Shown here: piece by piece, positions 14,467 to 64,000 of the stretch
How the letters are laid out: each line of letters opens with the position of its first letter
Numbering within the stretch: the first letter of the stretch is position 1
Assembly (NCBI GenBank): GCA_965178125.1
Contig: OZ237741.1
Location: 558,001-622,000 of the forward strand
DNA length: 64,000 nucleotides
Source: Bilabrum cf. latius
Lineage: Eukaryota
Reading direction: 5' to 3'
Notes under the pieces: generated by a model
Told to the model about the DNA's origin: nothing
What the model saw: the letters and a program-made list of their open reading frames with translations, nothing else
The model's database searches: none
Made by a program: the position numbers and the translations under genes

Positions 14467-14468
14467 AC

Positions 14469-25051: not shown

Positions 25052-25056
25052 CTAGC
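25052..25056 (+). repeat. Target-site duplication CTAGC, right copy
   Basis: Matches 86-90. Confidence 0.93.
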
Positions 25057-25679
25057 AGGTCCGGGGTCAGCTTCTGGACGTGGTTCACGTGAGTCGTCTC
25101 ATGGGTAAACGCGACGTAGCCCTCCCCATCATCGTCCACAAACACGCTCGGTGCATCGGGCAGTTCATTATACGCCATTCCACTGACGTTTCCATTCACC
25201 ACATGGAATGGGCCGTACGGGGAGGCGCTGGTGGCGACGGAGTACCTCGACCTCTCGAAGTCTCCGTGACCGTCGATGACGGGGAGGATATTCACCCACA
25301 TCACAAACTGGCCAGTTTTAGCTGACTTTGCGACCCATGGCGAGTAGAGAATACCTTCTGGCCTGTCGTGCACGGCCAGGACGGCACCGTGGAAGGTCCA
25401 GGATTGCAGATCTTTAGAGGTCGCCAGGTTCACGGTGTGGTTCATCTGGAAGCCGCACGTACCGACATTCGTCGAATGACATCCAGTAGGCTATTCGGTG
25501 CAGTTGCCGTATCCTGCTCCATATCAAAAGAAAGTGTCGCCGATCCTTATAGTTTGCCCGTCATGTACATCCAAAATCTGCCCGGTTACCGCATCGCGTC
25601 GCGGTTCGACGTTTGAAACGCGGGCGATGCTGGCAGCATATGTAGAAGCCACAAGCATAGACGCTACAATGGCCCACAT
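25052..25679 (-). pseudogene. 5' part of a secreted host GH43 glycoside hydrolase, disrupted by the virophage
   Basis: Signal peptide MWAIVASMLVAS; ILDVHDG, TSKDLQSWTFHG, TGQFVMWVN, ATSASPYGPF, VFVDDDGEGY; extra in-frame TGA at 25524-25526. Confidence 0.88.
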
Positions 25680-25813
25680 CCTGCTTTGGCGAGCAACAAA
25701 GGTGGAATTATAGATTTGATCTGTTCGCGCTGAAGGTTCCGGTCTCCCCAAGGTGTGGACTCCATCCAGACACAGTAAACGCCCATAATTGCCAGGTAGA
25801 GTTAGGGACCACC

Positions 25814-28800
25814 ATGTCGTCCGGTTCGTCATTGCTTTCTAGACTTAGTACGCCGCAAACAATTGCAAATTTGAGTGACGATGAAGACAGTAGGCACCTA
25901 GGCGGAGACGAGCACCAGCTGCTGGGCTGCTGCATTTCTGATCCTAGCGGCTTTGATGCTCTTGTCTCGTCGGGACGCCTGCCACTTGGACTTTAGCGTG
26001 CAATTTTGTTGTCACCTGCTGCCTGCGAGCTCGTGTCGAAGCTGCCAGTCACGGGGACGCAGCCGCTTCGAGCAGCTTGGACGGGCCTTGCACTCGCTGC
26101 CGAGAGGGTTGCAGCCCACCACGGAGATCTGATCCCCGCGGCGCTGGCTATCTCATAGGCTTGTGTTAGCGCTGCCACCAGCGGCGAGCTGTCCAATTAT
26201 TGCGGGAGGACGCTAGAATCGATAGTGGCGCTAGCAAACTCGATGTCAGAAGGCAAGCGGTGGGAAGACTGCTACCGAACTGCCGTAGAGTAGCGTGGTC
26301 TTGCGGACCTAGCTATGCTTGCAATTCGACTGCTGCAGACGTTCAAAGGTGACCTATCCGTCGCTCTAGGGGTGGAACGCTCGCCCTCACGCGTTGCGAG
26401 CGCCGGCGGCAGCACCAGCCGAGGTGCAGGCGCTGATGAGGCGCAAACATTGAAAGGATTTCGTCGACGGCCAGCCAAAGCAAAGGATACTATTAGAGAT
26501 GTCACAAGTGCAGGCAATGCCTCGCCACCGCCCCTGATGGCGCCATCCTCGGAGCAGCTGCTCCTGGAGCAAGCAAGCGACCGAGCACGCTTCCTGCCGA
26601 CTGCTCTTGCATCGCAGCGCAGGCTTCTACGACTAGTGTTCGGATCCGATACAGAGTCCCCCCCGCAAGCTTTGCCAAGGAGCGGCAGGATGGCGATGGT
26701 GCTGTGCCGGTGCATGCGGCAGGCCATCGGCGCAGTGGACGAGCGGAGCGACCCCTCTGGTACTGACGGGAGCCATCCCGCCGGTGCTCTCTACGAAGCA
26801 GTGTCTGTGGAAGTGGCCGCCCGAGTCTCTGCCCTGCGCGCTCTGTGCCGTCGGTTCGGAGACTCGGCTGCCAGGGAAAAGGGGCCACCGGCCGATGTGG
26901 TAGGCACGACAGCGACCATCGCCGCTGAGGCGGCCCGCATGGAGTACACCGGCCGCGAGAAACGGTTCCGCAACCGTTCGCGCGGCGCCAAGAGCACCAA
27001 GCTGCCCGGAATGGCCGGGGCGGCACCCGATGGGTCCAACTCGGCAGGATCCTCAGGCAGCCTGCGTGAGCAGGAGATGCCTGGGGGAGCCGTAGATCAT
27101 CCAGCCAGTGTCGGCTAGAAGAAGCGGGGCAAGGGCAGAAGAGGCAAGGGCCGTCGCAAGAAGCTGCAGGCAGGGAGTGACACGGGGCTGGAGTCCGGTG
27201 CCGCGGCACTCGGGGGTGTACATGCCAGTGGCGGGCGAGGAGCTGCTCGAGCCGCCGGGCAGCCAGGCGGGGACCAGGGCTTTACCGCGGTCAAGTGCTC
27301 CCAGAGAGTCAAGCTTGCTTGCGAGGTGCTGCTCAGCGGCAAGGCCACCGCAGAAGACCTCTCCATTGCTGCTGGCACATCCTGTCCCGGCGCTGCCTTG
27401 GCTGTGCTGGACTATAGAATGGCACGGCAGGCTGGGGATGCTGCGATGCAGGACCTATGCCGCTGCTGCAATTCGATCGTAAAGAGTGTGGTGGTAGCCC
27501 ATGCCGGCGGAGCGGCGCGGACGGCCGATTCTGAAGAGGATCGAAACCTAGCCAAGGCGCTAGATCGATATAAGCTGGCGCGAGCGCGTGTATGCGGTGC
27601 TCGCACTCGCTGCGTCCATGCGTGCCTCTAGGCGGACGCTGAGGGGCAGGGGGGCGAGCAGGACTGGTCGTTCGAATCGAGCCCTCTGCTGCACACACCC
27701 ACCGAGAATTAGTAGAGTTACATCGACGTGGTTCGGATGGTTTGGGTGGCGCTAGCGAATGCGACTGGATTGTGGCGCCTGCTGCCCGTGCACGATGGCA
27801 TGCCGGGAGCGGACTCAACGCTGGATGACGCAAGCATTGCACTGCTGGGCGCTGCAGAGGGCAGTATCCCAGCGACATGCGCGGGTCTTGCGGTAGCAGC
27901 GATGGTGCGCAGGACCGCGAGCGCTTGCTCGCATCGTGTTCAGCTGCAGGGCGCTGGCAACGTGGACGCTATGCTCATGGTTGCGCGCGGGGAGCAGCCA
28001 AAGGGTGTACCCGTGTCGCTGTGTCGGCTCGTACCAGAGTGCGTGTGGAGGCCAGTGCTAGAGTCGCTGGTGAATGACACGGAAAATGGGGTGGCAGAGC
28101 GCGGCGATTTCCCGTCGGCGTCGGCATCGTCACAGGAGCTCGCATCGACCGCAAGCAAGGGTGCAGCCGAGGACCCGCCACTGCGAGCATCCGGAGGGGT
28201 TATGCACAGGGGGGAACGCATGGTCCGGTGGACGCTGGACGCACTCGTCATACCACTCATGCTGCAGGACGGCGCAGAGGCACCCAGTGTGCGGGAAGAC
28301 GTGGAGGCTGAGCGAGAGGCTGCCGCCGCCGCGCTTGCAGAGTCTCGAGCCGAGGAAGCAGTGGCGAGCGGAAGAGCTGACACCGAGGATGTGAGCGCTT
28401 CTGCAGCAGCCCCAAAGCCAGTGGATCCTGCGAATCTCCGTGGCTATGACTTCACTCCCCTGCAGACACCTCCCACCGATGCAAAGCTCCTCTGCGCATC
28501 GGAGCGGGCTCGGGCGGTGGCAGCAGCCGAGCTGTCGCTCTCCATGTGGGTGGATCTGTGCGAGAGCGAGGGGACACTGGAGCAGCAGGACGAAGCCAGG
28601 GATCTCAGACGACTGGCAGCGCAGTGCATTGCACCTGGAGGGTGGAGGTCCAACGGACCAGGGGAGCTACGGGATTTCCTGTACGGCCGCGTGCCTGGCG
28701 GGGGTGACCTGGATGAGGCCGGAGGTGCTGATAGGGAGGCGGAGGGCGCCGAGGCGGGAGGGGCTGAGGCGGTGGCGGCAAGTGGGAGTCCTTCCAGAGC

Positions 28801-28966
28801 AAGCGGTCCATTGGGGGGTTCGGGGATCATTTCCGATTCCGAACCCATGGCTGGGATCATGCTTCCTCTGCCTCCACTGATCCCGGACCCTCCATCTGCG
28901 GCAGGCCTTCGGTCCTCGAAAGCGATTCGAATGGCCATTGCATACAGGTATAGCGGACGGTCGTAA
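25814..28966 (+). CDS. Host hypothetical protein (1050 aa)
   Basis: Four track ORFs in one frame separated only by TAG; ends TAA; no recognisable domain. Confidence 0.72.
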
Positions 28967-29091: not shown

Positions 29092-29456
29092 TGACCGAAG
29101 AAGTTGTCATTCTTGTCTCTACGTTCAAATCGTTCCGGTAACAAGCGAACAAATCAGGGCTGAAAGTTTAAGGAGCAAGTACATATTGCATAAGTGGTGA
29201 GTCCTATTTGCATTAGCGTCTGAACGCATTTAATTGGCAACCGGCTTAGGTGGCAATTCTGTAGCTCTGTGCTCAATGCGTTCTCAGATAGCAATCTGGC
29301 ATTTAAGCCTGGACCGGAGCAGAAACGATAAATACTTGAATCAGTAAGTGGCTGTGTCTCTTCCCTCGTTGCCGCGATCAACGGTCACATTGCAGCACAC
29401 TAGCTCTGGCTGGTTGCACTCTGCATAACGCAGGACGGACAGCAGCACAAATCAGC

Positions 29457-31274
29457 ATGGCGTGCATGCATGGACTTAACTGCCGTAATTATATGTGTAC
29501 TCGAATTCACCCTGCTGGACGCAAGCAGCTGTGCCGATACGGTGACAGGTGCAACAACGAGCACTGCCGGACATTCCGACTGCACCCGAGGCGTGGCTCT
29601 GGGATCAACTGTCCACCCGCGGATCATGGAAGCCGGTTGCACCTGCACACCGGAGCTATTTCCGGGCCAGGGTTCCACTCAAGTGCGGCCGCACCGGCAG
29701 GATTCGGCACGGGAGACCCCTTCCATGACGATATAATTCGTTCAATGGGTATCGATGGAATGCTCGCACACGGGCACCCGAGGATGGGTGCCACCGCGGT
29801 GCATGCGCACCGACTGCCCGCAGGGGCAGGTGGAGGACCAGCCACTGCTACAATTGGCGGCAGCAACGAGGTGTTCGTCTGCCGCATTCCACATGCAGCT
29901 ACACGATCAGATCTGCAGTCAGCAGTGGAGAGCGCCTTCGGGAGGGTGGCTTCGATCAAGGAACACACCATAACCAAGGGCTTCACGTTTGTTGCATTCC
30001 AAGACTCGCGGGCCGCCGGACGCGCGCTGCGAGCTGGAAGGGTGGACATCCCAGGTATTGGTCAAGTGGTGATCGACAGGCCGTCTGGTACCCCGCGTGG
30101 GGCAGACATGCCTCTTCCAAAGCCAGAGCCGAGACCAGCTGACGATGCGTGCAGGGTCTTCGTGGGGGGCATTGGCAGGGGGGCCAAGGTCTTGGACGTG
30201 CTGTCAGCCATGGGCGCCTTCGGGAAGGTGGAGTCAATCGACGAGGACACAATGCCCAAGGGCTTCACGTTTGTCACATTCGCCGCTGCAGGCGGTGCTA
30301 GACGCGCGATTGAGGCCGGCCTTGTGGACATTCCAGGCGTGGGGACAGCGTCGATCAGGGTACCAAAGGCGTCTGCCCCAATGTCTCGTCCGACGCCAGA
30401 GTCGAGACTAGCTGACGACGCGTGCAGGGTCTTCGTGGGAGTGAGCGGCGGGGCGAAGGTCTTGGACGTGCTGTCAGCCATGGGCGCCTTCGGGAAGGTG
30501 GTATCCTTGAGCGAGGACACTATGCCCAGGGGCTTCACGTTTGTCACATTCGCAGATACCGGTAGTGCTAGGCGTGCGCTACGGGCTGGCACCGTGGACA
30601 TTCCAGGCGTGGGCAAAGCGCCGATCAGGGCCCTATCGGAGCCTATTGGTGATGCGTGCAGGGTCTTCGTCGGGGGTATTGGCACAGGGGCCAAAGTATT
30701 GGACGTGCTGTCAGCCATGGGCGCCTTCGGGAAGGTGGTATCCTTGAGCGAGGACACTATGCCCAGGGGCTTCACTTTTGTCACATTCGCAGATGCCGGT
30801 AGTGCGAGACGCGCGATTGAGGCCGGCCGCGTGCGTGTTCCAGGGTTTGGAGAGGCTGGGATCAGGGTCTACGAGAAGCGTGCCAGTGGCGGTGGTGGTG
30901 ATACGATCGAGAAACGGCCGTCTAGGAGCCGGGAGAGTCTTTCCACGGCGTCATCTCGGGGTGGGTCCATCGGCTTGGGGCCTCGGTCCCGGGCGGGGTC
31001 TGACTCTAGCCGAGGCAGCTCTGTGGCAGAGGGAAGGAGCAAGAAGGTCATCGACAGGAGGGGTGGTGGGGAGGACGCGGTGGGGGCTGGGGCCGGGGCC
31101 GAGTCTGGGATCGAGCATGGGTTCGGGATCGCTGCTCCTGCGCCAGCTCCTGCTGCTGAGCCACCCCTGCCGGAGGGATGGACCAAGCACGTGGGAGTGG
31201 ACGGATATGCCTACTACCACAACGCTGCCACTGGAGAGAGCCAGTGGGAGAGGCCCGTACGTGGGGCGCTGTGA
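29457..31274 (+). CDS. RNA-binding protein: CCCH zinc fingers, 4 RRM-like repeats, WW (605 aa)
   Basis: C-x-C-x-C-x-H fingers; VFVGGI and GFTFVTF RNP motifs; LPEGW...YYHN..TGESQWERP; ends TGA. Confidence 0.88.
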   Translation: MACMHGLNCRNYMCTRIHPAGRKQLCRYGDRCNNEHCRTFRLHPRRGSGINCPPADHGSRLHLHTGAISGPGFHSSAAAPAGFGTGDPFHDDIIRSMGIDGMLAHGHPRMGATAVHAHRLPAGAGGGPATATIGGSNEVFVCRIPHAATRSDLQSAVESAFGRVASIKEHTITKGFTFVAFQDSRAAGRALRAGRVDIPGIGQVVIDRPSGTPRGADMPLPKPEPRPADDACRVFVGGIGRGAKVLDVLSAMGAFGKVESIDEDTMPKGFTFVTFAAAGGARRAIEAGLVDIPGVGTASIRVPKASAPMSRPTPESRLADDACRVFVGVSGGAKVLDVLSAMGAFGKVVSLSEDTMPRGFTFVTFADTGSARRALRAGTVDIPGVGKAPIRALSEPIGDACRVFVGGIGTGAKVLDVLSAMGAFGKVVSLSEDTMPRGFTFVTFADAGSARRAIEAGRVRVPGFGEAGIRVYEKRASGGGGDTIEKRPSRSRESLSTASSRGGSIGLGPRSRAGSDSSRGSSVAEGRSKKVIDRRGGGEDAVGAGAGAESGIEHGFGIAAPAPAPAAEPPLPEGWTKHVGVDGYAYYHNAATGESQWERPVRGAL

Positions 31275-32012
31275 GGGCATTTGACAGGAAGGATCCAAGT
31301 ATTTAGGCTTTTTGGCACCCACTTCGGCTTCTGCGTTTTGTGCAAGCCCAAGGGTCCAAGTCTAGATCAAGGTTTGCCGTGGCTTGTTAGTTGACGGCCA
31401 CGCGTGCAGTCGCCATTGGTCGCAACGCTGGCAGGTACAGTAGTGCTCAACGCCTCCGGGGACTGCGTTACCACCCAATGGTGAAAGGTCAAAAAGTCGA
31501 AGGGTGCAGTCAGGGTCTCGCACCACTCATCGTGGACTCTAGCCGAGCAGCCATGTGTGCCTGAAAAGCACTCTGGTGCAGTTTTGGCAAGCACTACAGT
31601 GCATTGCAATAATTGTCGGTTAAGAGAAATTGTTCTCCCCGACCTAAACTAATTGTTCGAGCCAATCAAAGTAAACCAAACTGTCAATTTAGATTTTAAT
31701 ACTGATTATACCACGCACCGCGACAGAACGGAAGTTGCCAATTACCTGTCCTTGAGTGAAGACAACATCAAGTGGAGAGCTGTGGATTGTCTGTAGATTT
31801 TGGACGATACAACTCCTATTGAGCCCTTAACTCCTATTGAGCCCTGAACGTGAGTCGTAGTGACTGGGATGATACTATGGGTACTGTTCTCGCGGGCTGT
31901 GGTTTGCCGTCTCTCTGCTGGTTCAAAAGTCGTTCAAAATCGAGATGCGCCGACCATTTTGCAATCCATTTGAACCACTTACTAGCCTGCACTTTGGTTG
32001 TATATAAGCAGT

Positions 32013-33890
32013 ATGGATTGTCGACACGGTATCAAGTGTATCAATTACACGTGTACTCGGAGGCATCCTCCGGGACGCAAGCAGCTGTGTGCGTTCGGCG
32101 ATGGTTGCACAAACAAGGCTTGCCGAAGCATGCGGCTACATCCGAAAGTAGGCTCTAAGGTTATGTAGCCCCCGCATACTATGATCGGTCCTTCTGGGAA
32201 AACCCGCGGCAAGGCAATCGGCAAGCCTTGTCGTGATGGGGAAGCGTGCACGAGGTTCGATTGTAGGTTCGAGCATCCTCCTTCACGGGTTCCTGATTGC
32301 AGTCGCGGGGCTCTGTGCGTTAAGTATGGCTGCAAGAACTTGCATCCAGTGTCCCGGAAGATAGACTGTCCCCGCGGTGCCGCTTGCTCTCTCAACAGCT
32401 GCCCGAACGCGCACCCGCCAAGCCGCCCCCGCAAGTGCAAGTTTGGTGCCTCGTGCACGAGGCAAGGAAACGGCTGCAAATTCATGCACCCACCAAGTGA
32501 AAGCAGCCCCGCAGCGGTTGTAGGGGCAGCCCTGGCAGATCCCGCTGCTCCGGAAATCGATACTCATCACGACAGAATCGGTGCGATGCTCACTGGGATG
32601 GATCTCCCAGCAGAGCTGTCCACTCGCCACGCAACTCATCACTATAATGGGGCGGGCAGGGACTGGGAAAGCACCGGCGGTGGCGCGCACTCGAGGGGCT
32701 CCCTAACAAGCGCAAGCAGCCGGGGAGGCATGCACATGGTGGATAGTCGCCTGCACGGCTAGCGCCCTGCAGCGAGGCACAACACAACCGGAGCAGGAGC
32801 AACTAGGAGTGCAGCAGGAGGTGCGGGGCGGGGTCGGCACATTCCCGGCGGTGCTCCGCCACACCTTAAGCATCGCGAAATGCGCACAGGGGCGTCATCG
32901 GAAGGCAACGGGCTCGGCGGTAAGCTCGTCTTCGTTGGAGGTTTGCATCCGAAGACCAAAGCCACCGCTGTTTTGGCCGCCATGTCTGCGTTTGGTAAAG
33001 TGGACCAAGTTGCTGAGACATCTCTGCACAAAGGATTCACCTTCGTGACGTTTGGTGACGTTTCAGGCGCGCGGGCAGCTGTTAGAACTGGAGAAATAGA
33101 GTTTCCCGGTGGTATTGTTGCCGGGATCCAGTGGCCCAAACCCGCGGCTCCAAAGAAGAATAAAAGTTTCGCAGCGGAGAGCAAGGAGGACCAGCTAGCC
33201 TCAGCCGGAACCACGCAGGTATTCGTAGGCGGTATCGGCCGTAAAGTGCGCGCGATGGCGGTCATGGCCGCCATGTCTGCCTTTGGCAAGGTCGACGATA
33301 TTGTCGAAAGCACCCTCACACGAGGCCACACAGTCGTAACATTCCAAGATGCAGCGTGCGCCAAGCGCGCCCTCAAAGCGGGGTCAGTTGAGGTTGGCGA
33401 GGGACTGCGTGCCCGTATCGCGAAGCCCAGGCCGGGGCCCGGCGCAAGAAAGGCCGCCGCGCTTGGACGAGGAGGCCCAACTAGAGAGCCAATTCGAGCT
33501 CCACCAGCACGGGCTACTGAGTAGTACAGAGAGACAGCCAGCGCAGCAACGGGACAGGCAGCTCAGAAAACACGAGCAAGGACGTCCTACCCAAGAACTA
33601 CCCACAGCAGCGAGACCAGGACCGAAACACGGGGCAGACTTGCCCCAAGAATCAGCGCGGGACACGAAGACACCCTGCCAGCCGGCTGGACCCGGTACAC
33701 GGACGCGGGAACAGGCACGCCGTATTATGTTCACGAAGATGGCACTACACAGTGGGCCGACCCGAGGAAGCAGGCACATTCCCACTCCCCTTCGCTGCCC
33801 GGGGGATGGGCACAAGACGTGACCGACGGCGGCTACACATACTACCACCACGTGGATGGAAGGACCCAGTGGGAGAGGCCCATGGCCTGA
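32013..33890 (+). CDS. RNA-binding paralog: multiple CCCH fingers, 2 RRM, 2 WW (625 aa)
   Basis: N-terminus homologous to the 29457 gene; frame open through three TAG to TGA; LPAGW..YY..TQWADP and LPGGW..YY..TQWERP. Confidence 0.85.
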
Positions 33891-51957: not shown

Positions 51958-53757
51958 TCAGCCCAACAGCTCGTTGAGAAGCTCGGTTTTGTTGAAATTG
52001 ACCCTTCGGAAGACATCCATGGCGTGGGTGAAGGATTCCCCGGCGGTGGGTCTCTCGAGGATGCCGAGCACCTCCCTGACCTCGGCCTCGTGATCCATAG
52101 CCCCTGCTTCAGGCGGGGCTGGGCGCACGACATCCCCCACGACGATGGGAGGGTACGTGGATTCAGGCGCCGCGTGCGCATGGCTTGCCATGAGTCTTGC
52201 CCCACTTTCCAGCGCCGCACGCATCGCTGCTCCGCCCTAGACTGGCAGGCTTGGAGGCATGCCGGCTCCAGGCACGCCACCACCCGAGCCGTATGACGGC
52301 GGGATAGACCCACCCGAGCCGCGTGACGGCAGAACTGATCCGCCAGAGACGGGGTCAGCGGGATGCGCTGGGACGCTGCCCGTGCCTGTCCCGCCCGCGT
52401 TCTGGTGTGTGACATTGGCATGCTGTTGCCCTTGCCCTTGCCCCTGCCAGGGCTACCCCCACGCAGCAGTCCCGTCCGCGCCTGCAAATGTATCAGCGGG
52501 ATCTGCTTCACGGGTGCCAGCCCCAGCGCCTCCGGCGCCTACCATCCCAAGGCCTTGGGGTGTTCGGCCGAGGCGAGCAGAGGCCGGTGGATCGCCTGCT
52601 GGGCGAGGCGGCAGGGATGATGCAGCAGCTGACACCGAAGAGGTAGCCGTGCCGGAGCCAGCCATTGCTCCCGCCCACGCACTTCCAGTGCCTGCTGCTG
52701 GTTCCAGCGGTAAGCTCGGGAATCCAAGTTCCGCTGACTGACGCCCGCGGGAGCCGCCCCGCGAGCCACCCGCAGCTGGAGCCCTGCCTCCAGACGACCC
52801 GGATGATGCTCTCCCCCTGGATCTACCTGTGCCAGCCCCTCCCCCAGCCCTACCTCCATCCCCGCCTCTGCCGCTCGTGCCGTTGCCGTTGCCCCGCTTA
52901 CCCCTGCGAGTCTTCCTAGACCCCGCCACTGTCCTGGCAGCGTAGGTGGCAGGTCGCTCCCCTCTGGCCCTGCGCGAATCCACCTGGCTGCGGCCCCGGG
53001 CTGGATCTGATCCAGGCACGTACTACTATCCTACTCCTGCTAGTGCGGTCGTCATGTCTGCTTGTGCCCTCCTCGTTTCGTCTCTGCTGGGCGGGAGGCC
53101 AGACACGTCATTCCATACGTCTTCCAGGTGGATGATGTCGGGCTCGCCCCTGGTCGTGTGGCAGTGGGGCAGCAGCCGGGCAGAGGTGGTTTCTCGAGAG
53201 CAACAAAGAGCCAAATCGATGCCCTGGGCGACGACGAGCTTTACTGCAGCCTCAAAATCGCCGTCCCCAGCAAGCAGAACCAAGCGCTCCAGCTTGCCCT
53301 TGAGAACGAGTTCGAACATACAAGTTGCGATTGCCACATCAACACCAGCCTGTACCACTCGCTTGATAGGGTGGTGGCTATGAATACACCTGCACTTCGG
53401 ATCAGTGCAGCGCACGTTCATCGTCTTCAGGGGGTAATTCTCTACACGAACTGCGTTCTGTCGCATGGACCGAATGAACGGGGGTTCTCGACGGTCGTGC
53501 CCAATAGCAACGGCCTCATTTTGCTTCCAGGTAGAAATGTACACGACCTCATCAAAATAAGCATCCCCATTCTCCCCTGGGATTCTGTACGCAATCTGCT
53601 TCAAGAGCTGCTTTACGCTGGCGGGATCATGGCCAAATACTGCTCCAGACTCCTCGTTGAATCGCTTGATGGTAAAATACAAGTACCCACCATCTATGAG
53701 CAACACGTTTCGCTTGCGATCAGCCGAGGCGGCCGCATCTGACGCGACTGCCGCCAT
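51958..53757 (-). CDS. NYN (LabA/DUF88 PIN-like) domain protein with low-complexity linker and small helical C-terminal domain (599 aa)
   Basis: LLIDGGY, QAGVDVAIA, LLAGDGDF; three track ORFs joined by TAG; ends TGA. Confidence 0.82.
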
Positions 53758-54149
53758 TGCTGCTCTGATCGCTCACTCCCCCGATTGGTGCGTTTGCAGT
53801 GAAGAAGGCGCAGAACGATACAGCCCCAACAGTGACGCGTAAGTGTCGATTTCTTGATCCTCTATGCTTCCGTAGGATGTGCAAGAGTAATGCAGGTATG
53901 CATGCAACAAGTTCAATTTGTAGAGTGCCGAGCACCATTCATCACACTGCCCTTGAGAGCCTCTGGGGTTCTCGAATAGAGCATTCCTAGGCCCTGAGGG
54001 GATGCTGCAATGGAAGATTGGCAGTGTTTGACAGTTCAGGCTTTATGGCAAAGGCGGACAAGCGCCTGTTGGCCCAGCCAGTCCGTCGGGAAGATCGCTC
54101 GGCCCGCGCCCTTGGCACGACACATTGGCCACCCAAACCAGCCCACCGC

Positions 54150-55139
54150 TCAGCTCACCACGCACTTGTTGTCGTCCCCGCTCCTGCTATCAAAGGCCAT
54201 CGAGTGATCGGCTGAGGGCGAATAGTGCAGATTGTCCGCGAAGTACGTCTGCTCGAGCTCGCCCTCGGGTTTCTGGTCTGCAAAACTAATCCGCCGCTTG
54301 CCCATCCCCCGCGGGCGCTCCGCCTCCGGACCCGCGCCCTCCTTCGCCCCGCTTCCGCCGCGTTTCAAGATGCTGGGGCGTCTAGTCAGCTTGGGTCGGC
54401 CGAAGGGAGGCGTGGACGGCGCGCCATCCTCTCCACCTTTCGCTGCCGCTGCATCGCCACCCTCAGCACCAGAGGTAGATGCTGGCCCGGCAACTTCCCC
54501 CTCACCGGCACCGCTGCTCGCGCCCGTCCCTCCTAGGCCGGCGGCCGGCGCGTCCCCCGCGGGGGCACCGGAGGGACCGGGAGCGCTGCCTGCTGCTGCT
54601 GCCGCGCCCGGAACGGGAGCCGAAGATGGTCCGCCCACAGCGGCAGGCAACGACGGCGGCTATGTGCCCTCGTGTTCATCATCTTCAGCAGCCTCAGAAT
54701 CAGCTCGCTCCTGCCCGCGCCGCCGCAACCCGAGCAAATTGGCAACTCCCTTCACAAGAGATCGCAACTTATTCTTTCCCCCTTTGGCAGGTGATCCAGG
54801 CGGGCTGTCATCTGCCGAAGGATCAGTTGAAGCTCCCAAGCTCTCTTTAGCTGGAGCGGTGCCAGTAGCCGCTGAGCCGATACTCAACTCCTTGCTTTCC
54901 GCGGCGTTGCCTTTGGGGCGGTGCGGTTTGCCATAGATCGGCGGCTCCTCCGTGAGGCCATCAGGCCTTGTCCACTATGTTTTCTTTGTTCCTGTGTGAA
55001 AGTAGTAGTGTTTCTGCAGCGAAACGTCCAGCACTCTGTACCATCCAGGAGGATACGACACCGCTTGCGACGTACCCTTGGCAGTCCCCGTTGCTTCTCC
55101 AGCACCTCCTTTTGCGTCTTGAGCAATAGTTTCTGACAT
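54150..55139 (-). CDS. WW-domain protein with SILK and RVxF-like motifs and C-terminal CaaX (329 aa)
   Basis: YPPGW...HYYFHTGTKKT(TAG)WTRP; RRPSILKR; KRRISFAD; ends KCVVS-TGA. Confidence 0.8.
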
Positions 55140-55632
55140 CTGACAACCAAAACAAGCAGATTCTATCCCTTGACGGGGGTATATCCGCGTAAAAAGGGAG
55201 AGGTAGCTGCTGTTGACCCTGTGGTGACAGCTTTGGCTGCTGTTCGCTCGCGGCGATAATTCGTCACCTTACTGCCTTATGGATGCAATACCACACAGCA
55301 ATATATGTAGTAAGGCTGGTAGATACACGAATGGCCTACAGCAACGGGAGCAACTGCTGCACCTGAATCATGCTACTCAATTTTCATATTTCGGGCTATA
55401 GAAACACGTTACAATAAAAATAGTTGATGTGACGAGTGAATTTAGAAGTTTTCCATTGTGCCGTATTGCTGCAGGATAGTGGGCATGTTCCACACATTTT
55501 CGTAGCAATCACACTCATCGATTGACTTGGGTGCGTTGGGTTTGCCAAGGATGCCATGATCTGTCCTTGTTGTCTCAAATTTTAAATATCCTGCCGCACG
55601 TATACCAGCCGTTTGTGTCACATTCTCCGCAG

Positions 55633-57920
55633 ATTAGGGTGTTGCGCGCGGTGGGAAAGAATACTTTGATCCTATTCATGGGGCAATCGAGCTGGACCCT
55701 CTGGCAGTGCGGTGCATGGACACCCCTGTGTTCCAACGGTTGCGGGAGTTGAAACAGCTTGGATCGTCTTACTTTGTGTTTGGTGGAGCGTCTCACAATC
55801 GCTTTGAGCACAGCGTTGGGGTGTATCACCTGAGCAAGACTATGATTGACCGGTTTGCATCGCAGCAGCCGGAGCTAGGGATCACTGACGACGAGCGCAC
55901 AGCCGTCGCTCTGGCTGGCTTGCTGCACGACCTTGGGCACGGACCGTTCAGCCACGTGTTTGACGCAGAATTCATCCCAAGGGCCCGACCAGGTGCAACA
56001 TGGACACACGAGCAGATGAGCATCGACCTGATCGACGTGATGCTGGAACAGGGCGACTTGCACGAAGACCTCTCCCCAGAGGTGGTATCGATGATCAAAG
56101 GCATGATCATGGGAGGCAAGCCGCCCAAAGGCCACGGCGCGGGAGCGCTACAGAAGTCACATGTAGGCAGCAGCTCAGCCGGACAGGGTCCGCCGTCCAT
56201 GTTTCGCAGCGACACATCGTCCTCTCGATCGGCCTCGTCGTCCTCGTCCTCGGCGGCTGCCTAGCCTGCCTCGAACGGTGTAGGCTACTCGCTAGCCGCA
56301 CCGGGGCGCGAATTCCTGTACGAAATCGTGGCAAACGCAAGGAACAACATCGATGTGGACAAGTTCGACTATCTGGCCCGGGACAGCCGCTGCGTGGGCC
56401 TCAAGAGCACGTTCGATTTCTCTCGGCTGGTTCGGTCTGCAAGGGTCGTGGAGGGGCAGATCTGCTTCCCCTTCAAGGAGGCCATGACGATCTACAACCT
56501 GTTCTTCAACAGGTACCTCTTGTTCAAGCAGATATACACGCACAGGGCAAGCAAGGCCATCGAGTTCATGCTCACCGACGTGCTGCTCGAGGCAGACAGG
56601 GCATGGCAGGGACGCATCAGCCGCGCCATCGACGACCCGAGGCAGTACTCTAAGCTGACGGATGGTATCCTGCGAGACATCGAGAACTCAACGGACCCTT
56701 CCCTGGTAAAGGCGAGGTCGATCGTGAGCCAGCTCAGGAGGCGCAAGCTATACAGGTTTGTGGACCAGTGGCTCGTGCCAAAGGAGAGCACTCGGGACGT
56801 GGGCAAGCCGTCAGCGGAAGAGATTACCGACCTGAACCCCAGGCCAGAGGTGCAGCTGCAGCCGGAAGATCTCGTGGTGCAGGATTTCAAGCTTCACTTC
56901 GGCAACAAGGACAAGGACCCGCTGCAGCTGACGGGCTTCTTCCGGCCCTCGCGCCCCGACGTGCTTTGCGCCCACGACCCCTCCAAGTTTTCACACTGCA
57001 TCACTCCCACGTTCTAGGAGAGGATCCTCAGGCTCTACTGCAGGAGACCGGAGAGGGAATACGTGCGTGCGGCCGGAGAGGCCTTCAGGCGATGGGTGAA
57101 GCGCGTGTCACCGGGCGCCAGCAACACGCCAGACCACTCCTCCAGGATCTTCTCGCCCCCTCGGTCTGTGGGAGGCAGGTCCAGGGACGGTGGTGGCTCT
57201 GTCAGGGGGGACACTAGGGGACGTGACGCGGACGGGGACAGCGAGGATGAGGAGGGCATGGGGAGGGCGGGCCTTGGGATCGGATCAAGAACGGGAGAGC
57301 GGCGCATGACGCTGTCCCAGCAGAACGTCCTGTTCGGGGAGGGCGATCTAGCGACGGACGAGGCAGCCGCTTCCCAGCTACAGCCAGGGGCAGCGTCCTC
57401 CTCAGCGTCGTCTTCCTCTGCAGCGGCATCTAAATCTTCGTCCGATTCGGCGGGGCAAGGCAATGGCGATGGTGGAGCATCGCGCGCATCGGGAGGTGGC
57501 CTTGCATTGGGGTCAAAGAGGGGCAGGGCCACTGGAGATGGTGAGGGTGATGATGATGGTGATGACGACGAGGATGAAGATGAAGACGACATCAAGTTTT
57601 CGCAGGGGTCCGGCTCGAAGCAGAAACGGGGTGGCAGCGCGCCGCTGTCGCAGATCCCAGACGCGGCGGACGGACTCGGGGCTAGCAGCCTACGAAGGAG
57701 CGGCAGCACTAGCTCGAACCGACCTCCGAGCGGCCCGAGCAACGGGGCCGCGAGCAAGCGCAGGAGGACGAGCGCGGGGAGTGCGAACGGGGCAAAGAAA
57801 GGCAAGGGAGGTAAGGCGGCAGCCGGGAAGCCTGCCAGTGCGACTGGCTCGCAGGCGGGACTAAACCCGTGGACAATGAGCGCATCGTAGTCCTCGTCAG
57901 GGTCGAAGGGGAAAGATTGA
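55633..57920 (+). CDS. SAMHD1: SAMHD1-like HD-domain dNTP triphosphohydrolase (first exon not located)
   Basis: DPIHG, FQRLRELKQLG, HNRFEHSVG, LLHDLGHGPFSH, DVDKFDYLARD, IYTHR; joined across TAG to TGA; probable splice acceptor CCGCAG ending 55632. Confidence 0.88.
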
Positions 57921-58042: not shown

Positions 58043-59063
58043 TCACTGCGATGCCACCATGGGCCCACCAGCCCCGCCAGTTGCCGCCTTGGCCGCCCCC
58101 GCAGCCATCATGCCGGCATATCCGCTCTGCACGCGAGGAGCAGAGCCGCTGGCGGGGCCCGCCAACGCTGCCGCGGGAACGCGCGGCGCCGGTGCCGGAA
58201 CCTCGCTCCCAGGCGCGCCCCACTGGGAGCCCTCCTAGGCGACCGCAGGGGCTGGGGCGTGAGCAGCGCCTGAGGACGCCGCAGCGTGGTGGTGGTGGTG
58301 TTGTCCTCCCGAACCACTCCTGTGGCCCCGACCACCCCCGGCACCTCTGCCCCCGGCACCACCCGAGCCATGTCCGGGACCGTGCCCGCCCGAGCGACCA
58401 TATCCGCCCCCGCCCCCGGACCTCGCGCCGCGCCCGTACCCGCCTCCTCCGCCGTAGCTGCGGCCTCCTGCTCCGCGCCTGTCGCCGCCACGGTGCTCCG
58501 TATGCCTGTCTGCTGGGGCAGCCCTTGTCGCCCCTGTGGTGCAGCCTACGTCTGCCCCAGGGGTGGAGCTGGGAGCAGCAGGGGTCGATGCTACACTGTC
58601 TGGATGGGCCGAGATCTTGGAATAGTCTCTATGCACGTGCAGCCGAAGCTCAGAAGTGTCATCCCTGTTCATGCGCCTGGACACTGCACAGTTCCTGATA
58701 ACGATTGGCTTGCCTTCCCCTAAATCTGTCTCAATCCTTTCCAGCACGCTGTCTTGGGCCACGAGCTTTGTTCTTGCAGTCTCGTCCGCAACTGTCACCT
58801 CGGCCAGCCTGCTTCCTTTCCCTCCGTGCGCCTCATCCACCCTCTGCAGAATTAAAATATTGTGCAAAACATGATACAAAATGAAAAGGAAATCCATCGG
58901 CAAGAGGGGTGAGGCAATCGACCAACAGTACCCAGCTTACAACATCAATTTTTTCGATAATGGCGACCAAGTTCACCCCGGTCATACCCGGCATTAGCTA
59001 ATCTATTCTTAAATATCGAGCTGGACGGACATCTTGCCTCTGGGAGCCTCCTGATCTTGACAT
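58043..59063 (-). CDS. OB-fold single-stranded nucleic acid-binding protein with Gly/Arg-rich tail (intron 58844-58940)
   Basis: ID(TAG)LMPGMTGVNL..|..LAEVTVADETA..IVIRN; GTAAGC...GCAG phase-0 intron; ends TGA. Confidence 0.75.
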
Positions 59064-59338
59064 ATTTGATAGATTAGTGTGAAGGCCCCATCTAATCATA
59101 CTTGATCCGTAACTACACGTTATAAAATCTGACCGTGCACCAGTTCTGCACCAGGTGCCGCCGCACTGCCGCTTCTGTGTTCATATGGGTTCTAGGTGGG
59201 GCCAAATATCAATTGATACAACCTTTTTGTAGATGGTCTTAGAAATACATGTCTATACAAAGTGCAAAAAGACTCCCACGGGGTTCACAGCAGAAAGTGC
59301 AGCCCCGCCCCGCCAATGCGATTGGCCTCGCTAAACGC

Positions 59339-61738
59339 TCACGCAATGGGCCTGTCCCACTGGCTCTCTCCTGTAGCAGCGTTATAGAAATACGCGAGGC
59401 CGTCCTCTCCCACGTGCTTGGTCCATCCCTCCGGCAGGGGTGGCTCAGCAGCAGGAGCTGGCGCAGGAGCAGCGATCCCGAACCCGTGCTCGACCCCAGA
59501 CTCGGCCCCGGCCCCAGCCCCGACCGGGCCCTCCCCACCGCCCTTCCTGTCGATGACCTTCTTGTTCCTTCCCTCTGCCACAGAGCTGCCCCGGCTGGAG
59601 TCAGACCCCGCCCGCTTCCTTGTGCGCTTCCGCTTCCCTCCGGCACCACCGGCAGCCGTGGTCTTGCAGGCCTCGACTCCAGCTGATCCCACGCCCGGGA
59701 TGGGTACTGCTCCTGCCCGCACCGCGCGGCTCGCACTGCCTGCATCCGTGAATGTGACAAAGGTGAAGCCCCTGCCCATGGTGTCCTCGTCGATTGACTC
59801 CACCACGCCAAAGGCCCTCTCCATGGCTGCAATCAAGTCGCCGGCCCTGGCACCCTTTATGCCTCCCACGAAGACTCTCTTTGCATCACCGGCCGGGCGC
59901 GGCTTCGGCTTCGGCTTCGGCTTCGGCTTCGGATGAAACTTTGGGGCAGGCGCCTTTGGCACCCTGATCGACGCTGTCCCCGCGCCTTGAATGTCCACAA
60001 GGCCGGCCTCAATCGCGCGCCTAGCACCGCCTGCAGCGGCGAATGTGACAAACGTGAAGCCCTTGGGCATAGTGTCCTCGTCGATTGACTCCACCTTCCC
60101 GAAGGCGCCCATGGCTGACAGCACGTCCAAGACCTTGGTCCCTTTCCCAATACCCCCGACGAAGACCCTGTTGTCACTGCCAGCCGGTGTCGGCCCTGGG
60201 TGGGGCGGGGCGTGCCCCTTTGGCGCGTTAATGTGCGCTGTTCCAGCTCCTGGGATGTCTACCCTTCCAGCCCGCAGCGCACTGGCAGCCACTCGTGGGT
60301 CCGCGAACGTGACGAATGTGTAGCCTCTGTCCAGCGAGTCCTCCTTGATCGACGTAACCGTGCCGAAGGTACCCATCGCTGCCCGAATAGAGGCAGCTTT
60401 GGCTCCCGCGGCAAACCCACCCAGGTGCACTCGTGTCACCGGCCCTGCCTCGATTGCCGGCCGTGGTGCGCGTGGTCCGTGCCCACCGTGGTGGTGGTGG
60501 TGGTGATGGTGGGCTGCGCTAGGGTGCCCACCAGCATGTGCGATGCGCCGGACATCGTGCCTCCCCACCGCGTGAGAAGGCCCACCAGCATGTGCGATGC
60601 GCCGGACATCGTGCCTCCCCACCGCGTGAGAAGGCCCACCAGCATGTGCGATGTGCCTGACGCGCCGCTCCACCGTCTCATGGTACTTCGCACCGCCAGT
60701 TGCAGGGCCAGCTCCGGCACCACCAGCTACCACGACTCGCCGCGTCACCACCTCCACCGTCTCGATCAGCCTGTATCCCGCTGCCAGCTCGCCACGGAAG
60801 GCCCCACCACCCCTGCGGTCCTGGATCCGCCGCGTGCACGCCTAAAAGGCCTTGTCGCCCATCTCGCGTGCTACTGCCAGTACCATCAGGTCAGGCACCG
60901 TCTCCATGTCCGACACGTCCAGCCTCCTGCCGCCGGTGTCATCGGCCAGTTTCTGCCAGAAGGCCGTGATCTTGTCCTTCACCGTCCTCCTGTTCTCTGC
61001 CTGCACAGAATAGATCCGGACCTTCTTCTGTACCAGGGTGGCCAGGGCTCTTTTCCAGTCCATTGTGATCTTGAAGCCCTCCCCTGTCACGTACCCAGGC
61101 TCGTGGGGCAGGTCGTCACCCACCATGACCATCAGCCGCCTGGAGTTGGGTCCCCAGTCCATCTCCTGCGCGGCCTTGTGCAGGGCCAGCTCGTATGCCT
61201 CCTCGGGGTCGCCCCCGTAGGTCGGCCCCACGGTCCTGGTGAAGTCCATGATGGCCTTGAGGTTAGAGTCCAGCTTGGCCTGCTTGACCTTGGTGCTGCC
61301 CACGTCCATCAGCGGCATGTACTTGATCACGTACTTGTCCTTCTTGTCGCAGTAGTCTCCATGCGCGATGATGCCGATCCGCAGGTCTGTCGAGTTCTCG
61401 TTGGCCACTCGCACCAGGCCCCTGACCAGCTCTGCCAGCCCCGCCCGAACCTCCTCCAGGTAAGGGTACATGGAGCCGGTGGTGTCGAAGCACAGGCAGG
61501 CCTCGATCACCTTGCGCTCCGTGACTACGCGCCCCGGCTCCTCGTGCCTTACCACTGCCGGAACTGCCGGAACTGCAGAAGCTGCAGCACGTGGATGCCG
61601 GAAAATGCAGTCTGGCCTGTTGCAGCTTGCTCCAAAATGACAATCATTCAACCGCTCTGGGGGGTGCTTGAAGTAGCACCCGAAGCGGGTGCATCCTGCA
61701 CCATACTTGCACCAACGGTGCGCCGTAGTCTATGCCAT
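59339..61738 (-). CDS. CCCH fingers + vWA + 3 RRM-like + WW protein (799 aa), third paralog
   Basis: Two CCCH fingers; MIDAS FDTTGSM, GGDPEEAYE, VGDDLPH; RRM and WW regions nearly identical to the 29457 gene; joined by TAG at 60842. Confidence 0.85.
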
Positions 61739-62901
61739 TATGAGTAAAGTCTGCGATCGTAGCCCTTGAAAAACCTCAGTAATGGTCAGATGTGTGCGTT
61801 GGATGGATGGGAAAACACTCGATCCACCATTTCTGTGTCAAGTTGAGCAGAACATAGCTAGTACACATACTCTTACAGAGCTAAATAAGTCTTTGGGATG
61901 TTTTAATTGGAAATTTCTGGATCTGTGCTGACTGCAGGGTTGCGAGAATAGAGTAGCGGCCAAAACCTTATCTTGGCGGCACAATCGTACATAAAGCTAG
62001 AACATTGCAGCGAAAGACCTTCCATAATACTTATAAGTATACTTACTACTATTAAAGCCTTGATTTCGTGTACAACTACCTCTCTTTGCTGTCGTAGATG
62101 TCGCGAAGTGTCCTCCGGTCCGTCGCGAAGCTCGGCGGCATAAACCGGAACTATGCCAAGGTCGCACAAGGTACGCCTGGTGCAGGGCTCAGCAGGGTGC
62201 CTAGTGGACAAATGGCTACGAAAGTAAAGCGCATCTAGCACTGCTTTCAACGGCTGGCCCGTAGGTCAGGCGGATCGGCGGCACGGAGAGCACAAGTTGC
62301 CAGGCGAGCTCCAAGCTGCCAAGAACGGACCTTCCTTCGCATTATACGTGCTCTTACCACCTGCTCACCGCGCCAGATATAAGAGTGTGCTCAAACACTT
62401 CCACTATCTACCCCAGAGCAGCGCTAGCAACAAGCCCCACCGCACGGCACTACGCTTAGCAGAGGCTGCAAGGCCGCCATGGTGCGAAAGTCAAGTGGTT
62501 GGGAGTCGGTGGTACAGGAGGAACAAAGGAAGGCATGGGACTCGTGATGCACATAGAGCATGTGCACGTAATACAGCTTGGTGTGCGTGAAGCAATTGCT
62601 GTGGAAGGGCACTGTTACGGACAGGCATGGCGTGGCTTGCGGCCCCCTGTGTGCGAGCGGTATCCAGCGATGGAGAGGGGTTCTTGACGGCACGATCCTA
62701 TGGATTGGAGCGGAAGCCGAGGCAAATGAAAAACTCGCCGATACAATGATCGCCCCATGTCTACATGCAAGAAGTAGACACACGAATCACGTGCCTACAA
62801 TCCCACTTGCATTGCTTGGGCTGCTGCCGACCCACACGTTGAGCGCCGACAGTGGACACCGACTACATGCATCCCACTCGCGCCCCTCCCGCGAGCTCTC
62901 A

Positions 62902-64000
62902 TCACGGCATCCCCGTGTCGGCGTACAGCGCCGCGCGCACCGCAGTGGCAAGCGCCTGGTCCTCCGGCCACACACCCGCGGTTGTGCCGTGGTCGTACCC
63001 CTTGGCCTGGAAGTCCTCCAGCGACATGCCGCACTCGGACACCTTCCCGTCCTGCGTGTACACTTTGTTCCCTGACGTCACCACATACGCGTCGTGGGGC
63101 GGGCACGTGCCCTTGCCATAGTCGCCCGAGCTCGTCATAACTAGCGTGTTGTTCTGGTAGTGGTCCTCCTGTCCTGGCAGCTGGGGGCACACGCTGAAGC
63201 CGTGTCCAACGTATGCCGCAACGTTGCTGCGGAGACTCGAAACGGCAAGATGGGACAAGAAATTCACGGATCAAAGTGTGATAGGGCGAATGAGGGTACG
63301 ACGTGGCGAGGAGAGCAGTGGTACTGACTGCCCTGTACCCTACTCTCACTTGACGTGGTGGTTGGAGTGCCCTCCGAAGTCATTCTTCATCTCATTACCA
63401 GAGAGGTACAAGACGTTGTAGGTCGAGTTGAAGTTGTTCGAGCCTGCGAGCGGTGCTTCAGGGATGTCTGGGAAACAAAATGAACTCGATACAGGCCTAC
63501 AAAGGGAGGAAAAAGGCCTTGTGCAGGCTGCTCACCGTCATCGTTGTCGATACCCTCCTGCGAGTCGCAAGAGCAGGTGTAGGACACAAGGAGCAGATGA
63601 GGGCGCACACACGTTACGGGAACACTATACAGAATTAGAGCAAGCAGCAAGCAGCAGGCCAGCACGCTTTCCAATCACCCGACCAGTGCAGTGGCTCACT
63701 TGGACATTGTACTCCCCGAAGATGATGTTCTGGTACAGCTGGTCCCACTTCTTGATGCTGGTGGGTCTGCCGTCCTCTCCGATCCACTCCCAGACCTGGC
63801 GGTCCCAGCTGTTGAACGGGCTGCGAAAAATAGAACAAGGAAATGCACGGACGCACTACGATGCACGGCTGGATTGCGATACGCGGTGGCCATGCACATG
63901 CAATCTAAGCAATTGGCATCGATGGTAGCCGTGGGCGTATCAGTGCGTCGCTCACCCGTGATCACTCGTTTCGCGAACCGAGGCAAACATGATGTTCCTC
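62902..64000 (-). CDS. 3' exons of a right-handed beta-helix (pectin lyase-like) protein; starts outside the window
   Basis: RETSDHG|PFNSWDRQ, GIDNDDG, MKNDFGGHSNHH, C-terminal FQAKGYDHGT; several GTGAG...AG introns; ends TGA. Confidence 0.7.

Follow-up and report, generated by a model that had tools for sequence, protein, structure and literature searches.

UAG as a probable glutamine codon, with UAA and UGA kept as stops, in a protist genome segment and its resident virophage-like element

Does the genome of this protist read UAG as glutamine, with UAA and UGA kept as terminators? The question is raised by a 64-kb stretch of DNA (hereafter, the window), in which an AT-rich integrated element adjoins a host segment (positions 25052-64000, about 60% GC) carrying 12 genes when TAG is taken as a sense codon. 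The sequence-only reading had held that long genes of this segment become continuous when TAG alone is read through, and frame lengths bear this out. No stop-to-stop frame within 25001-64000 exceeds 644 codons when the standard code is applied; once TAG counts as sense, the three largest reach 2594, 2398 and 1228 codons. Treating TAA as sense instead leaves the longest frames nearly unchanged (645, 548 and 501 codons). Features of the host segment are listed below.

25280..28966, + strand: 1228-codon frame lacking a family match; 13 in-frame TAG; TAA end, with TGA four codons later
29340..31274, + strand: gene with RRM repeats and a C-terminal WW domain (Pfam RRM_1 E=2.2e-23, WW E=1.6e-10); 0 TAG; TGA just past WW
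31974..33890, + strand: gene with CCCH zinc fingers, RRM and two WW domains; 4 TAG; TGA end
34232..41428, - strand: PH and protein kinase gene, 2398 codons (Pfam Pkinase E=2.7e-48, PH E=4.6e-12); 20 in-frame TAG; TGA end
41360..43141, + strand: multi-pass membrane protein-like frame of 593 codons with no family match; 4 TAG; TGA end
43480..51264, + strand: gene for a large membrane protein, 2594 codons; 19 in-frame TAG; TGA end
51958..53772, - strand: NYN-domain gene (Pfam NYN E=1.8e-07); 4 TAG in the low-complexity part; TGA end
54150..55268, - strand: WW-domain gene; 2 TAG
55485..57920, + strand: SAMHD1-like HD-domain gene; ATG at 55485; 102-base GT..AG intron at 55531-55632; 5 in-frame TAG
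58043..59065, - strand: OB-fold gene, 307 codons (weak Pfam OB-fold match, E=0.0079); 97-base GT..AG intron at 58844-58940; TGA end
59339..61837, - strand: gene with CCCH, vWA-like region, RRM and WW; 2 TAG; TGA just past WW; two GT..AG introns (61751-61876 and 61932-62046) upstream of the coding frame
62843-63961: frame with no family match, which may not be a gene

Next, we examined where the TAGs fall. In the kinase gene, every one of them lies outside the PH and kinase domains. In the SAMHD1-like gene, two (55503-55505 and 55635-55637) come after the only in-frame ATG available upstream and before the conserved FDPIHG motif. The WW-domain gene carries one at 54975-54977 (context GTKKT-TAG-WTRPD), immediately before the second conserved Trp; in each of the four remaining WW domains of the window, this Trp is preceded by Q, just as had been read from the paralogous domains. 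The OB-fold TAG previously noticed in D*LMPG was located at 58998-59000 (context RID-TAG-LMPGM), and TAG is found in exon 2 of this gene as well.

Codon counts were then compared in and out of frame. Eleven long host frames, comprising 11,061 codons, contain 76 TAG and not a single TAA or TGA, and the two off-frames of the same genes (22,122 triplets) contain 175 TAG, 70 TAA and 378 TGA. TAG is about equally common in frame (0.69%) and off frame (0.79%), and TAA and TGA are excluded from the frame. A non-circular count, in which frames were delimited by TGA alone (nine sense-strand host frames, 10,321 codons), yielded 70 TAG versus one TAA, the latter being codon 1228 of 1232 in 25280-28978. 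At least one in-frame TAG is present in 11 of the 12 host genes, and TAG makes up 17% of host glutamine codons. The host genes stop at TGA in 11 cases and at TAA in one (28964-28966), the same stop usage as had been noted from the sequence. As this TAA is followed by TGA four codons on, it is not by itself proof that TAA terminates. What is known of UAA as a host terminator comes from this one ambiguous gene end and from genes of the integrated element, whose main features are the following.

91..25051, unstranded: integrated virophage-like element, AT-rich (~30% GC), 25 kb, with 427-base inverted repeats at 91-517 and 24625-25051
12577..14466, + strand: major capsid protein, 629 codons; 9 TAG; TAA end; Pfam MCP_V20_C E=0.0047
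20434..23211, - strand: primase-helicase, 925 codons; 20 TAG

The inverted repeats are 96% complementary, and the hexamers flanking them (CTGGTC on the left, CAGGTC on the right) match at five of six positions. The integrase matches Pfam rve (E=3.1e-10) and, weakly, a chromodomain. Capsid-type matches remain below the curated cut-offs (V18/19 at E=1.2e-05, besides MCP_V20_C), and the capsid protein has 54 homologues in the protein library; a close relative of its gene was not found in the viral contig collection. As in the host, long frames open in the element only with TAG read as sense. The eight element frames (4,223 codons) contain 72 TAG and neither TAA nor TGA. Six of them end at TAA and two at TGA, the TAA ends falling at full homologue length, and TAA, absent within each frame, is abundant immediately outside it. 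The element shares the host code, with UAG as sense and UAA and UGA as stops. Its glutamine codons number 124 CAA, 10 CAG and 72 TAG. The element is translated by the host machinery and has adapted to it: among the G-ending glutamine codons of its AT-rich genes, TAG has for the most part taken the place of CAG. This suggests a long association of the element lineage with hosts in which UAG encodes glutamine.

Sequence homologues were used to ask which residue occupies the TAG positions. In fragments of close orthologues, 93-96% identical to the window, glutamine stands at all seven covered TAG sites. Six of these sites belong to the large membrane protein gene (44866-44868, 45997-45999, 46159-46161, 47641-47643, 48268-48270 and 49405-49407; fragments P0241, P0242 and P0243, 93-96% identical) and one to the SAMHD1-like gene (57015-57017; fragment P0237, 96% identical). 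P0241-P0243 had been called with TAG as a stop, so their termini coincide with TAGs of the window, and two of them start with M at a window Val codon. In a fragment from further away, only 58% identical, one TAG site is occupied by D and a second by Q. Among the matches listed for the element helicase (98 of 120 homologues), the column of TAG 21481-21483 is Q in 98/98 rows, and two further TAG columns have Q in 58/98 and 23/98 rows. Glutamine is enriched 4.7-fold at the TAG columns of these listed matches and fits them best of all residues. In the SAMHD1 alignment, 34 of 73 rows carry Q at one of the TAG columns. In the capsid protein, the nine columns with TAG vary and are uninformative. Identification of UAG with glutamine, already favoured by the sequence-only reading, is thereby strengthened.

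Contigs of four sequencing runs contain the same sequence as the window. Those of runs X5, X6 and X8 have GT..AG joints that are missing from the DNA-like run X2; the joint of the OB-fold intron, for instance, is present in all three and absent in X2. The RNA and DNA labels of the runs are an automated guess, X5 being labelled "probably DNA", but since the contigs of X5, X6 and X8 are spliced, they are apparently RNA-derived. They keep the TAGs unchanged. Over the WW-domain gene, contigs of the three runs extend from 53905/53988 to 55336/55346 without differences. One X5 contig of 8071 bases covers 43404-51474, including the whole gene with 19 TAGs, and matches the window throughout without a difference or gap; the TAGs are therefore not removed by splicing or editing.

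This last result bears on the possibility that the TAGs are never translated, the genes being pseudogenes, the sequence misassembled, or the codons spliced or edited out of mRNA. Loss by splicing or editing had been named in advance as an outcome that would overturn the proposed code; instead, the spliced contigs retain the TAGs, with no other letters at the TAG sites and no joints within coding frames. We found nothing in support of untranslated TAGs. The 148 in-frame stops are of a single kind and occur in 19 frames matching full-length homologues, and the same sequence is present in contigs of four runs; this explanation is the least credible of all considered. Nor is it at all probable that UAG encodes another residue, be it Leu (the assignment in the rhizarian exLh), Ser (that of Scotinosphaera), or Glu, Lys or Tyr. 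Several TAG columns of distant homologues do consist mainly of D, K or R; among the matches listed for the helicase, they have D in 65/98 and 56/98 rows, R in 88/98 and K in 58/95. The SAMHD1 column has E in 29 of 73 rows, near the count of Q, and the fit on the helicase alignment alone favours Q (-50.3) over K (-52.0) and E (-52.9) by a modest margin among the matches listed. Against these stand the seven of seven glutamines in near-identical orthologue fragments and the invariant glutamine column of the helicase among the matches listed; L, Y, W, S and F fit the helicase TAG columns far worse than Q.

A further alternative is a code in which both UAA and UAG mean glutamine, as is common in ciliates, with host UAA scarce through GC-richness. 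Indeed, TAA is scarce throughout the GC-rich part, with only the 70 copies off frame, and the lone host TAA "stop" has TGA soon after. However, given the host ratio of CAA to CAG (84:288), equal use of TAA and TAG as sense codons would put some 22 TAA in frame; the 11 frames contain none, and a single one is found if the ambiguous gene end is counted. For the AT-rich element, the 124:10 ratio of CAA to CAG predicts hundreds of TAA were this a sense codon, against zero in frame, and most of its frames end at TAA. The 72 TAG against no TAA in AT-rich DNA rule out joint reassignment for practical purposes, and we give that code very little credence. Somewhat less remote, though still improbable, is that UAG is sense and yet serves as a terminator in some genes. 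The window offers only 12 host genes, and the SAMHD1-like gene has a TAG 10 codons upstream of its TGA stop. On the other side, none of the 12 requires TAG as a stop, three paralogous genes stop at TGA directly after their C-terminal WW domains, and TAGs are distributed all along the frames, 3' ends not avoided. Known UAG-only lineages also showed no such dual use (PMC5304391, PMC11687900).

Within the 12 host genes and eight element frames of this one 64-kb window, then, UAG very probably encodes glutamine, and UAA and UGA still appear to act as stops, UGA being by far the commoner in the host. By analogy with known cases, UAG would be read by a candidate tRNA-Gln with anticodon CUA, which would not read UAA and would lie one base from the normal tRNA-Gln(CUG), and recognition of UAG by eRF1 would be weakened or lost. 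The 64-kb window contains neither an eRF1 gene nor a tRNA gene for any amino acid.

In many ciliates, hexamitin diplomonads, Streblomastix, ulvophytes and Amoeboaphelidium, UAR codons encode glutamine (NCBI table 6 type). Those codes agree with the present one in the meaning of UAG and in the proposed route, a change of the tRNA-Gln anticodon with altered eRF1, but there UAA is glutamine too, whereas here it is excluded from frames. Codes splitting UAG from UAA are rare, with one fornicate, one rhizarian, one green alga and a few ciliates in the two reports we rely on (PMC5304391, PMC11687900), and the precedents listed by the earlier reading agree with them. The closest match is Iotanema spirale, an anaerobic gut fornicate with UAG as glutamine and UAA and UGA as stops, where 119 complete transcript ends comprise 104 UAA and 15 UGA (Panek et al. 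2017, PMC5304391). It shares with our host the same codon table, in-frame UAG at glutamine positions and UAA and UGA never in frame; UAG was not seen there as a terminator, and none of the 12 host genes here needs it as one. Unlike Iotanema, with its mostly UAA ends, our host uses UGA as the stop in 11 of the 12 genes, has about 60% GC and carries a virophage-like element.

Reassignment of UAG alone to glutamine is also reported for the ciliates Hartmannula sinica, Trochilia petrani and Protocruzia tuzeti, which stop at UAA in 86.9-98.3% of genes and use UGA least (McGowan et al. 2024, PMC11687900). These share with our host the reassignment itself, UAA retained as a stop and wide use of UAG as sense, and differ in that UAA dominates there and UGA here. 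The host genome also has features that are not known to be typical of ciliate macronuclei, namely 60% GC, an integrated 25-kb element, introns near 100 bases and genes as long as 2,400-2,600 codons. Other lineages have given UAG alone a different residue, namely Leu in Rhizaria sp. exLh and uncultivated TARA ciliates and Ser in Scotinosphaera (PMC11687900); there UAG is likewise decoupled from UAA, but the residue is not the glutamine observed here. As for the affinity of the host, proposed from the sequence to be bicosoecid-like, a single-gene SAMHD1 tree grouped the window with oomycetes and unnamed sequences at an SH-aLRT of 91, below the 95 mark, which is only a hint at a possible stramenopile. 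That tree held no metamonad rows, so that failure to group with metamonads is no test.

Endogenous mavirus-like elements of Cafeteria were reportedly described by Hackl et al. in 2021. Endogenous virus elements of Streblomastix strix read UAA and UAG as glutamine (Bellas et al. 2023, PMC10120064). The element described here is likewise in its host's variant code, the difference being that UAG alone is glutamine. It resembles those of S. strix and Cafeteria as an AT-rich virophage-like element of about 25 kb that resides in a GC-rich protist genome, carries an rve integrase and is bounded by inverted repeats. The code of Cafeteria and of the elements in its genome is the standard one.

Reassignment of UAG alone to glutamine is thus a rare, already known kind of code, and the present lineage seems to be one for which it was not described before. 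Whether it arose independently of known cases, in a GC-rich, UGA-terminating protist that is neither ciliate nor fornicate, possibly a heterotrophic stramenopile, together with a co-evolved resident virophage lineage in which TAG has nearly replaced CAG, we regard as evenly balanced. If so, the giant viruses and virophages that infect this protist would be restricted to hosts sharing its code, and UAG reassignment could be studied where low GC or a preference for UAA stops cannot explain the change. Codes that split UAG from UAA are relevant to the question of why reassignment normally affects both codons. In the reports cited above, described cases of UAG to glutamine all end genes mainly with UAA (PMC5304391, PMC11687900); a GC-rich, UGA-ending host freeing UAG only would provide a contrasting data point for codon-capture and ambiguous-intermediate models. 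The recoded virophage-like element indicates that mobile viral elements track the host code, so a code change could act as a barrier to exchange of viruses between hosts. Standard-code gene callers, finally, fragment the proteins of this organism, as the database fragments P0237 and P0241-P0244 illustrate, so that correct annotation of the genome and of its viral elements requires a table with TAG as glutamine.

We compared stop-to-stop frames in the window under five genetic codes. In the GC-rich part (the host DNA, 25052-64000), the longest frames comprise 645, 543 and 501 codons under the standard code and 645, 548 and 501 codons with TAA as a sense codon. Reading TAG as sense raises these values to 2595, 2399 and 1229 codons (stop included throughout), as the sequence-only reading had maintained, and the same change lengthens the largest frame of the AT-rich part from 254 to 930 codons. 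The codons singled out by that reading (TAG at 54975-54977 and 58998-59000, TAA at 28964-28966) are located exactly where it placed them. Eleven long host frames, 11,061 codons in total, contain 76 TAG, 0 TAA and 0 TGA triplets in frame; in their off-frames (22,122 triplets), 175 TAG, 70 TAA and 378 TGA are found.

Since this set of eleven frames was itself defined by TAA and TGA, the count was repeated with frames delimited by TGA alone, 17 of which reach at least 550 codons. The nine sense-strand host frames among them (10,321 codons) carry 70 TAG and a single TAA, which is codon 1228 of 1232 in the frame 25280-28978. Three host frames antisense to real genes have one, two and one TAA. In frames of the AT-rich part, TAA triplets are crowded at the flanks and missing from the cores; in its helicase frame, they occur at codons 7-67 and 997-1048.

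Base composition divides the window into bases 1-25,000 (about 30% GC) and 25,000-64,000 (about 60% GC). Inverted repeats of 427 bases (91-517 and 24625-25051, 96% complementary) enclose the AT-rich part, which we interpret, from its gene content listed below, as a virophage-like element that has integrated.

Protein matches in the AT-rich element
rve integrase, profile match, E=3.1e-10
primase-polymerase, match, E=9.2e-16
Sputnik minor capsid protein V18/19, weaker match, E=1.2e-05
V20 major capsid protein, C-terminal domain, weaker match, E=0.0047
588-1607 and 1697-2494, two adjoining paralogous DUF285 repeat genes beside the left terminal repeat, E=3.5e-87 and E=3.3e-55

The internal repeat unit of the DUF285 genes measures 75 bases. 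No related DNA was found among viral contigs when these were scanned with the capsid protein of the element.

UAA is not reassigned, and UAA and UGA are the stops, in agreement with the sequence-only reading. Eleven of 12 host genes are closed by TGA, and three paralogues terminate directly past a WW domain at their C terminus. The single host end at TAA has a TGA four codons downstream and thus decides nothing alone. In a sample of 12 host genes, occasional termination at UAG could have gone unseen, though this is improbable. Host glutamine codons comprise 76 TAG (17%), 288 CAG and 84 CAA; a use of TAA proportional to that of CAA would give about 22 in-frame copies, versus at most one observed. 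The element is a stronger test of UAA reassignment than the host: its 4,223 codons include 124 CAA, 10 CAG, 72 TAG and 0 TAA. TAA closes six of its eight long frames, and the helicase frame aligns with a 933-residue homologue over 99% of the length.

Removal of the TAG codons from mRNA, by splicing or editing, was checked on contigs from public sequencing runs. Ten listed runs, none of them marked as RNA, contain the stretch, and four of them (X2, X5, X6 and X8) were compared over 43001-63000; whether a run is of RNA or DNA kind is a guess, and the contigs show neither transcript ends nor expression level. The following GT..AG joints were detected, the DNA-like run X2 being continuous across each of them.

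58843 to 58941, minus strand, joint in X5, X6 and X8
61750 to 61877, minus strand, joint in X5 and X6
61931 to 62047, minus strand, joint in X5 and X6
55529 to 55632, plus strand, joint in X5

Because of these joints, their gene size and the intergenic gaps between them, we regard the contigs of X5, X6 and X8 as products of spliced RNA. The TAG codons are retained in them. One X5 contig of 8071 bases spans 43404-51474 with zero differences and zero gaps, including the entire 2594-codon frame of a large host membrane protein (43480-51264, plus strand) with all its 19 TAGs. The WW gene is matched by X5, X6 and X8 contigs without differences. No joint in contigs of the four runs over 43001-63000 excises TAG-bearing coding sequence, and other letters are restricted to 59384-61478, a region of paralogue cross-mapping. 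In the spliced SAMHD1-like gene (55485-57920, plus strand), the only in-frame ATG past the last upstream TGA is at 55485, and two TAGs separate it from the conserved FDPIHG motif, where the HD domain starts in homologues. Since the sole ATG precedes both, translation of this gene must cross two TAGs.

Judging from aligned proteins, the amino acid inserted at UAG is glutamine, as originally proposed. When the 2594-codon product was used in a search for shorter proteins, five library fragments matched. Four of them (P0241-P0244) are 93-96% identical to the window; for three of these four, the longest contig has 6317 bases in each case. The C-terminal ends of P0241 and P0242 coincide exactly with window TAGs, and that of P0243 with an ordinary window glutamine codon. 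The gene calls behind P0241-P0244 had treated TAG as a stop. At the start of P0241 and P0243, M stands opposite a valine codon of the window, which suggests a GTG start under the bacterial table. The window TAG sites covered by these 93-96% identical fragments have Q at six of six. P0237, a SAMHD1-like fragment (96% identical), likewise has Q at the TAG 57015-57017, and the more distant fifth match, P0245 (58% identical), has D at one TAG site and Q at another.

Another library fragment, P0250 (325 residues), agrees with the capsid protein of the element (12577-14466) in 320 of its 325 residues and shows Q precisely at the five TAG sites. In our reading, it stems from identical or almost identical DNA that its source translated with TAG as glutamine; it was not counted as evidence for glutamine. 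Probably, some public pipeline has already translated this contig, or one almost identical to it, in this way.

Among distant homologues, the primase-helicase of the element (TAG written as X) was aligned with 98 of 120 listed sequences, those with lower coverage or an unusual length having been dropped by eye. One TAG column, inside a conserved helicase motif, has Q in all 98 rows. A second has Q in 58 of 98, and in a third Q is the second choice (23/98); the remaining columns are variable or contain mostly D (65/98, 56/98), R (88/98) or K (58/95). Enrichment over background, computed on the 19 well-filled TAG columns, is highest for Q among all residues (4.7-fold). Fit of the TAG columns to the profile opposite the query's own codons is also best for glutamine (-50.3), followed by K (-52.0) and E (-52.9), with Y, L, I, F and W at -67 to -79. 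The informative SAMHD1 column (73 rows) holds 34 Q, 29 E, 4 S and 2 N, with T, I, C and A occurring once each. In the WW domain, TAG precedes the second tryptophan, a position occupied by Q in the four other WW domains of the window. The nine TAG columns of the capsid protein (54 library homologues) are variable and uninformative on the residue.

No RNA gene was detected in the window, neither a tRNA by ARAGORN nor any Rfam match. The window contains no eRF1 either, and the mechanism proposed here follows the known cases (PMC5304391, PMC11687900). A tRNA-Gln with anticodon CUA, a single change from CUG, would read UAG and would be unable to pair with UAA, and an eRF1 with poor UAG recognition would accompany it. 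For eRF1, PMC5304391 points to the N-domain motifs GTS, NIKS and YxCxxxF, and Iotanema has the substitution T32G. The ratio of TAG to CAG is seven to one in the element (72 vs 10, beside the 124 CAA), the host having 76 TAG vs 288 CAG. AT pressure seems to have shifted the G-ending glutamine codon of the element from CAG to TAG, which would imply long residence in hosts using this code.

The same code (UAG as glutamine, UAA and UGA as stops) is used by Iotanema spirale, whose genes end in 104 UAA and 15 UGA (Panek et al. 2017, PMC5304391). McGowan et al. (2024, PMC11687900) reported two further cases, the ciliates Hartmannula sinica and Trochilia petrani, and referred to Protocruzia tuzeti as well; in the ciliates of that study, 86.9-98.3% of genes stop at UAA. 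A rhizarian and uncultivated ciliates read UAG as leucine, and Scotinosphaera reads it as serine (PMC5304391, PMC11687900). In Streblomastix strix, endogenous virus elements share the UAR = Gln code of their host (Bellas et al. 2023, PMC10120064). In view of these reports, both this kind of code and viral elements following it are already known, and the window represents a further case of a rare code in a different setting. Unlike Iotanema and the ciliates, the host has about 60% GC, UGA as its dominant stop and long genes with a few introns of about 100 bases, and its resident element is virophage-like with TAG strongly preferred to CAG. Genome style and stop-codon usage, rather than phylogeny, indicate that the code probably arose here independently of the described cases. 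In a literature search covering mainly open-access papers, UAG as glutamine was found described neither in a stramenopile nor in a GC-rich protist with virophage-like elements.

The best named homologue of the SAMHD1-like protein is a EukProt transcriptome entry (45% identical). In a rapid maximum-likelihood tree built on 73 rows, from which the near-identical P0237 was omitted, the window grouped with environmental sequences and one EukProt entry, inside an 18-row group also containing the oomycetes (SH-aLRT 91, below the mark of 95 set by the tool). This single-gene tree gives a weak hint of stramenopile affinity of the host. Metagenome contigs scanned with a TAG-free segment of the large protein of the host (250 patterns matched) contained no relative. 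Region 51001-61000 is present nearly identically (48-99% of sampled words) in runs under four organism labels from four studies; a fifth study has small shares of it in two metagenome runs. The host may often accompany or contaminate other cultures, or its data may have been deposited under several names.

Genes 29340-31274, 31974-33890 and 59339-61837 form one family, in which CCCH fingers are combined with degenerate RRM repeats and with WW domains at the C terminus; the C-terminal stretches of the first and the last are nearly identical. In the DNA-like run, a second set of letters is seen over 59384-60139, a pattern that either cross-mapping between paralogues or recent gene conversion would be expected to give.

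Within the element, a module of about 100-200 bases occurs in five copies (273-458, 10879-11048, 15723-15947, 23355-23540 and 24687-24872), intergenic and within both terminal repeats, in both orientations and with 63-89% identity. It could be a common promoter or regulatory region. A 20-base unit is repeated in six or seven tandem copies at 14836-14988, in the gap 3' of the capsid gene. Host flanks at the terminal repeats (85-96 and 25046-25057) read CTGGTC vs CAGGTC, which may represent an imperfect 6-base target-site duplication.
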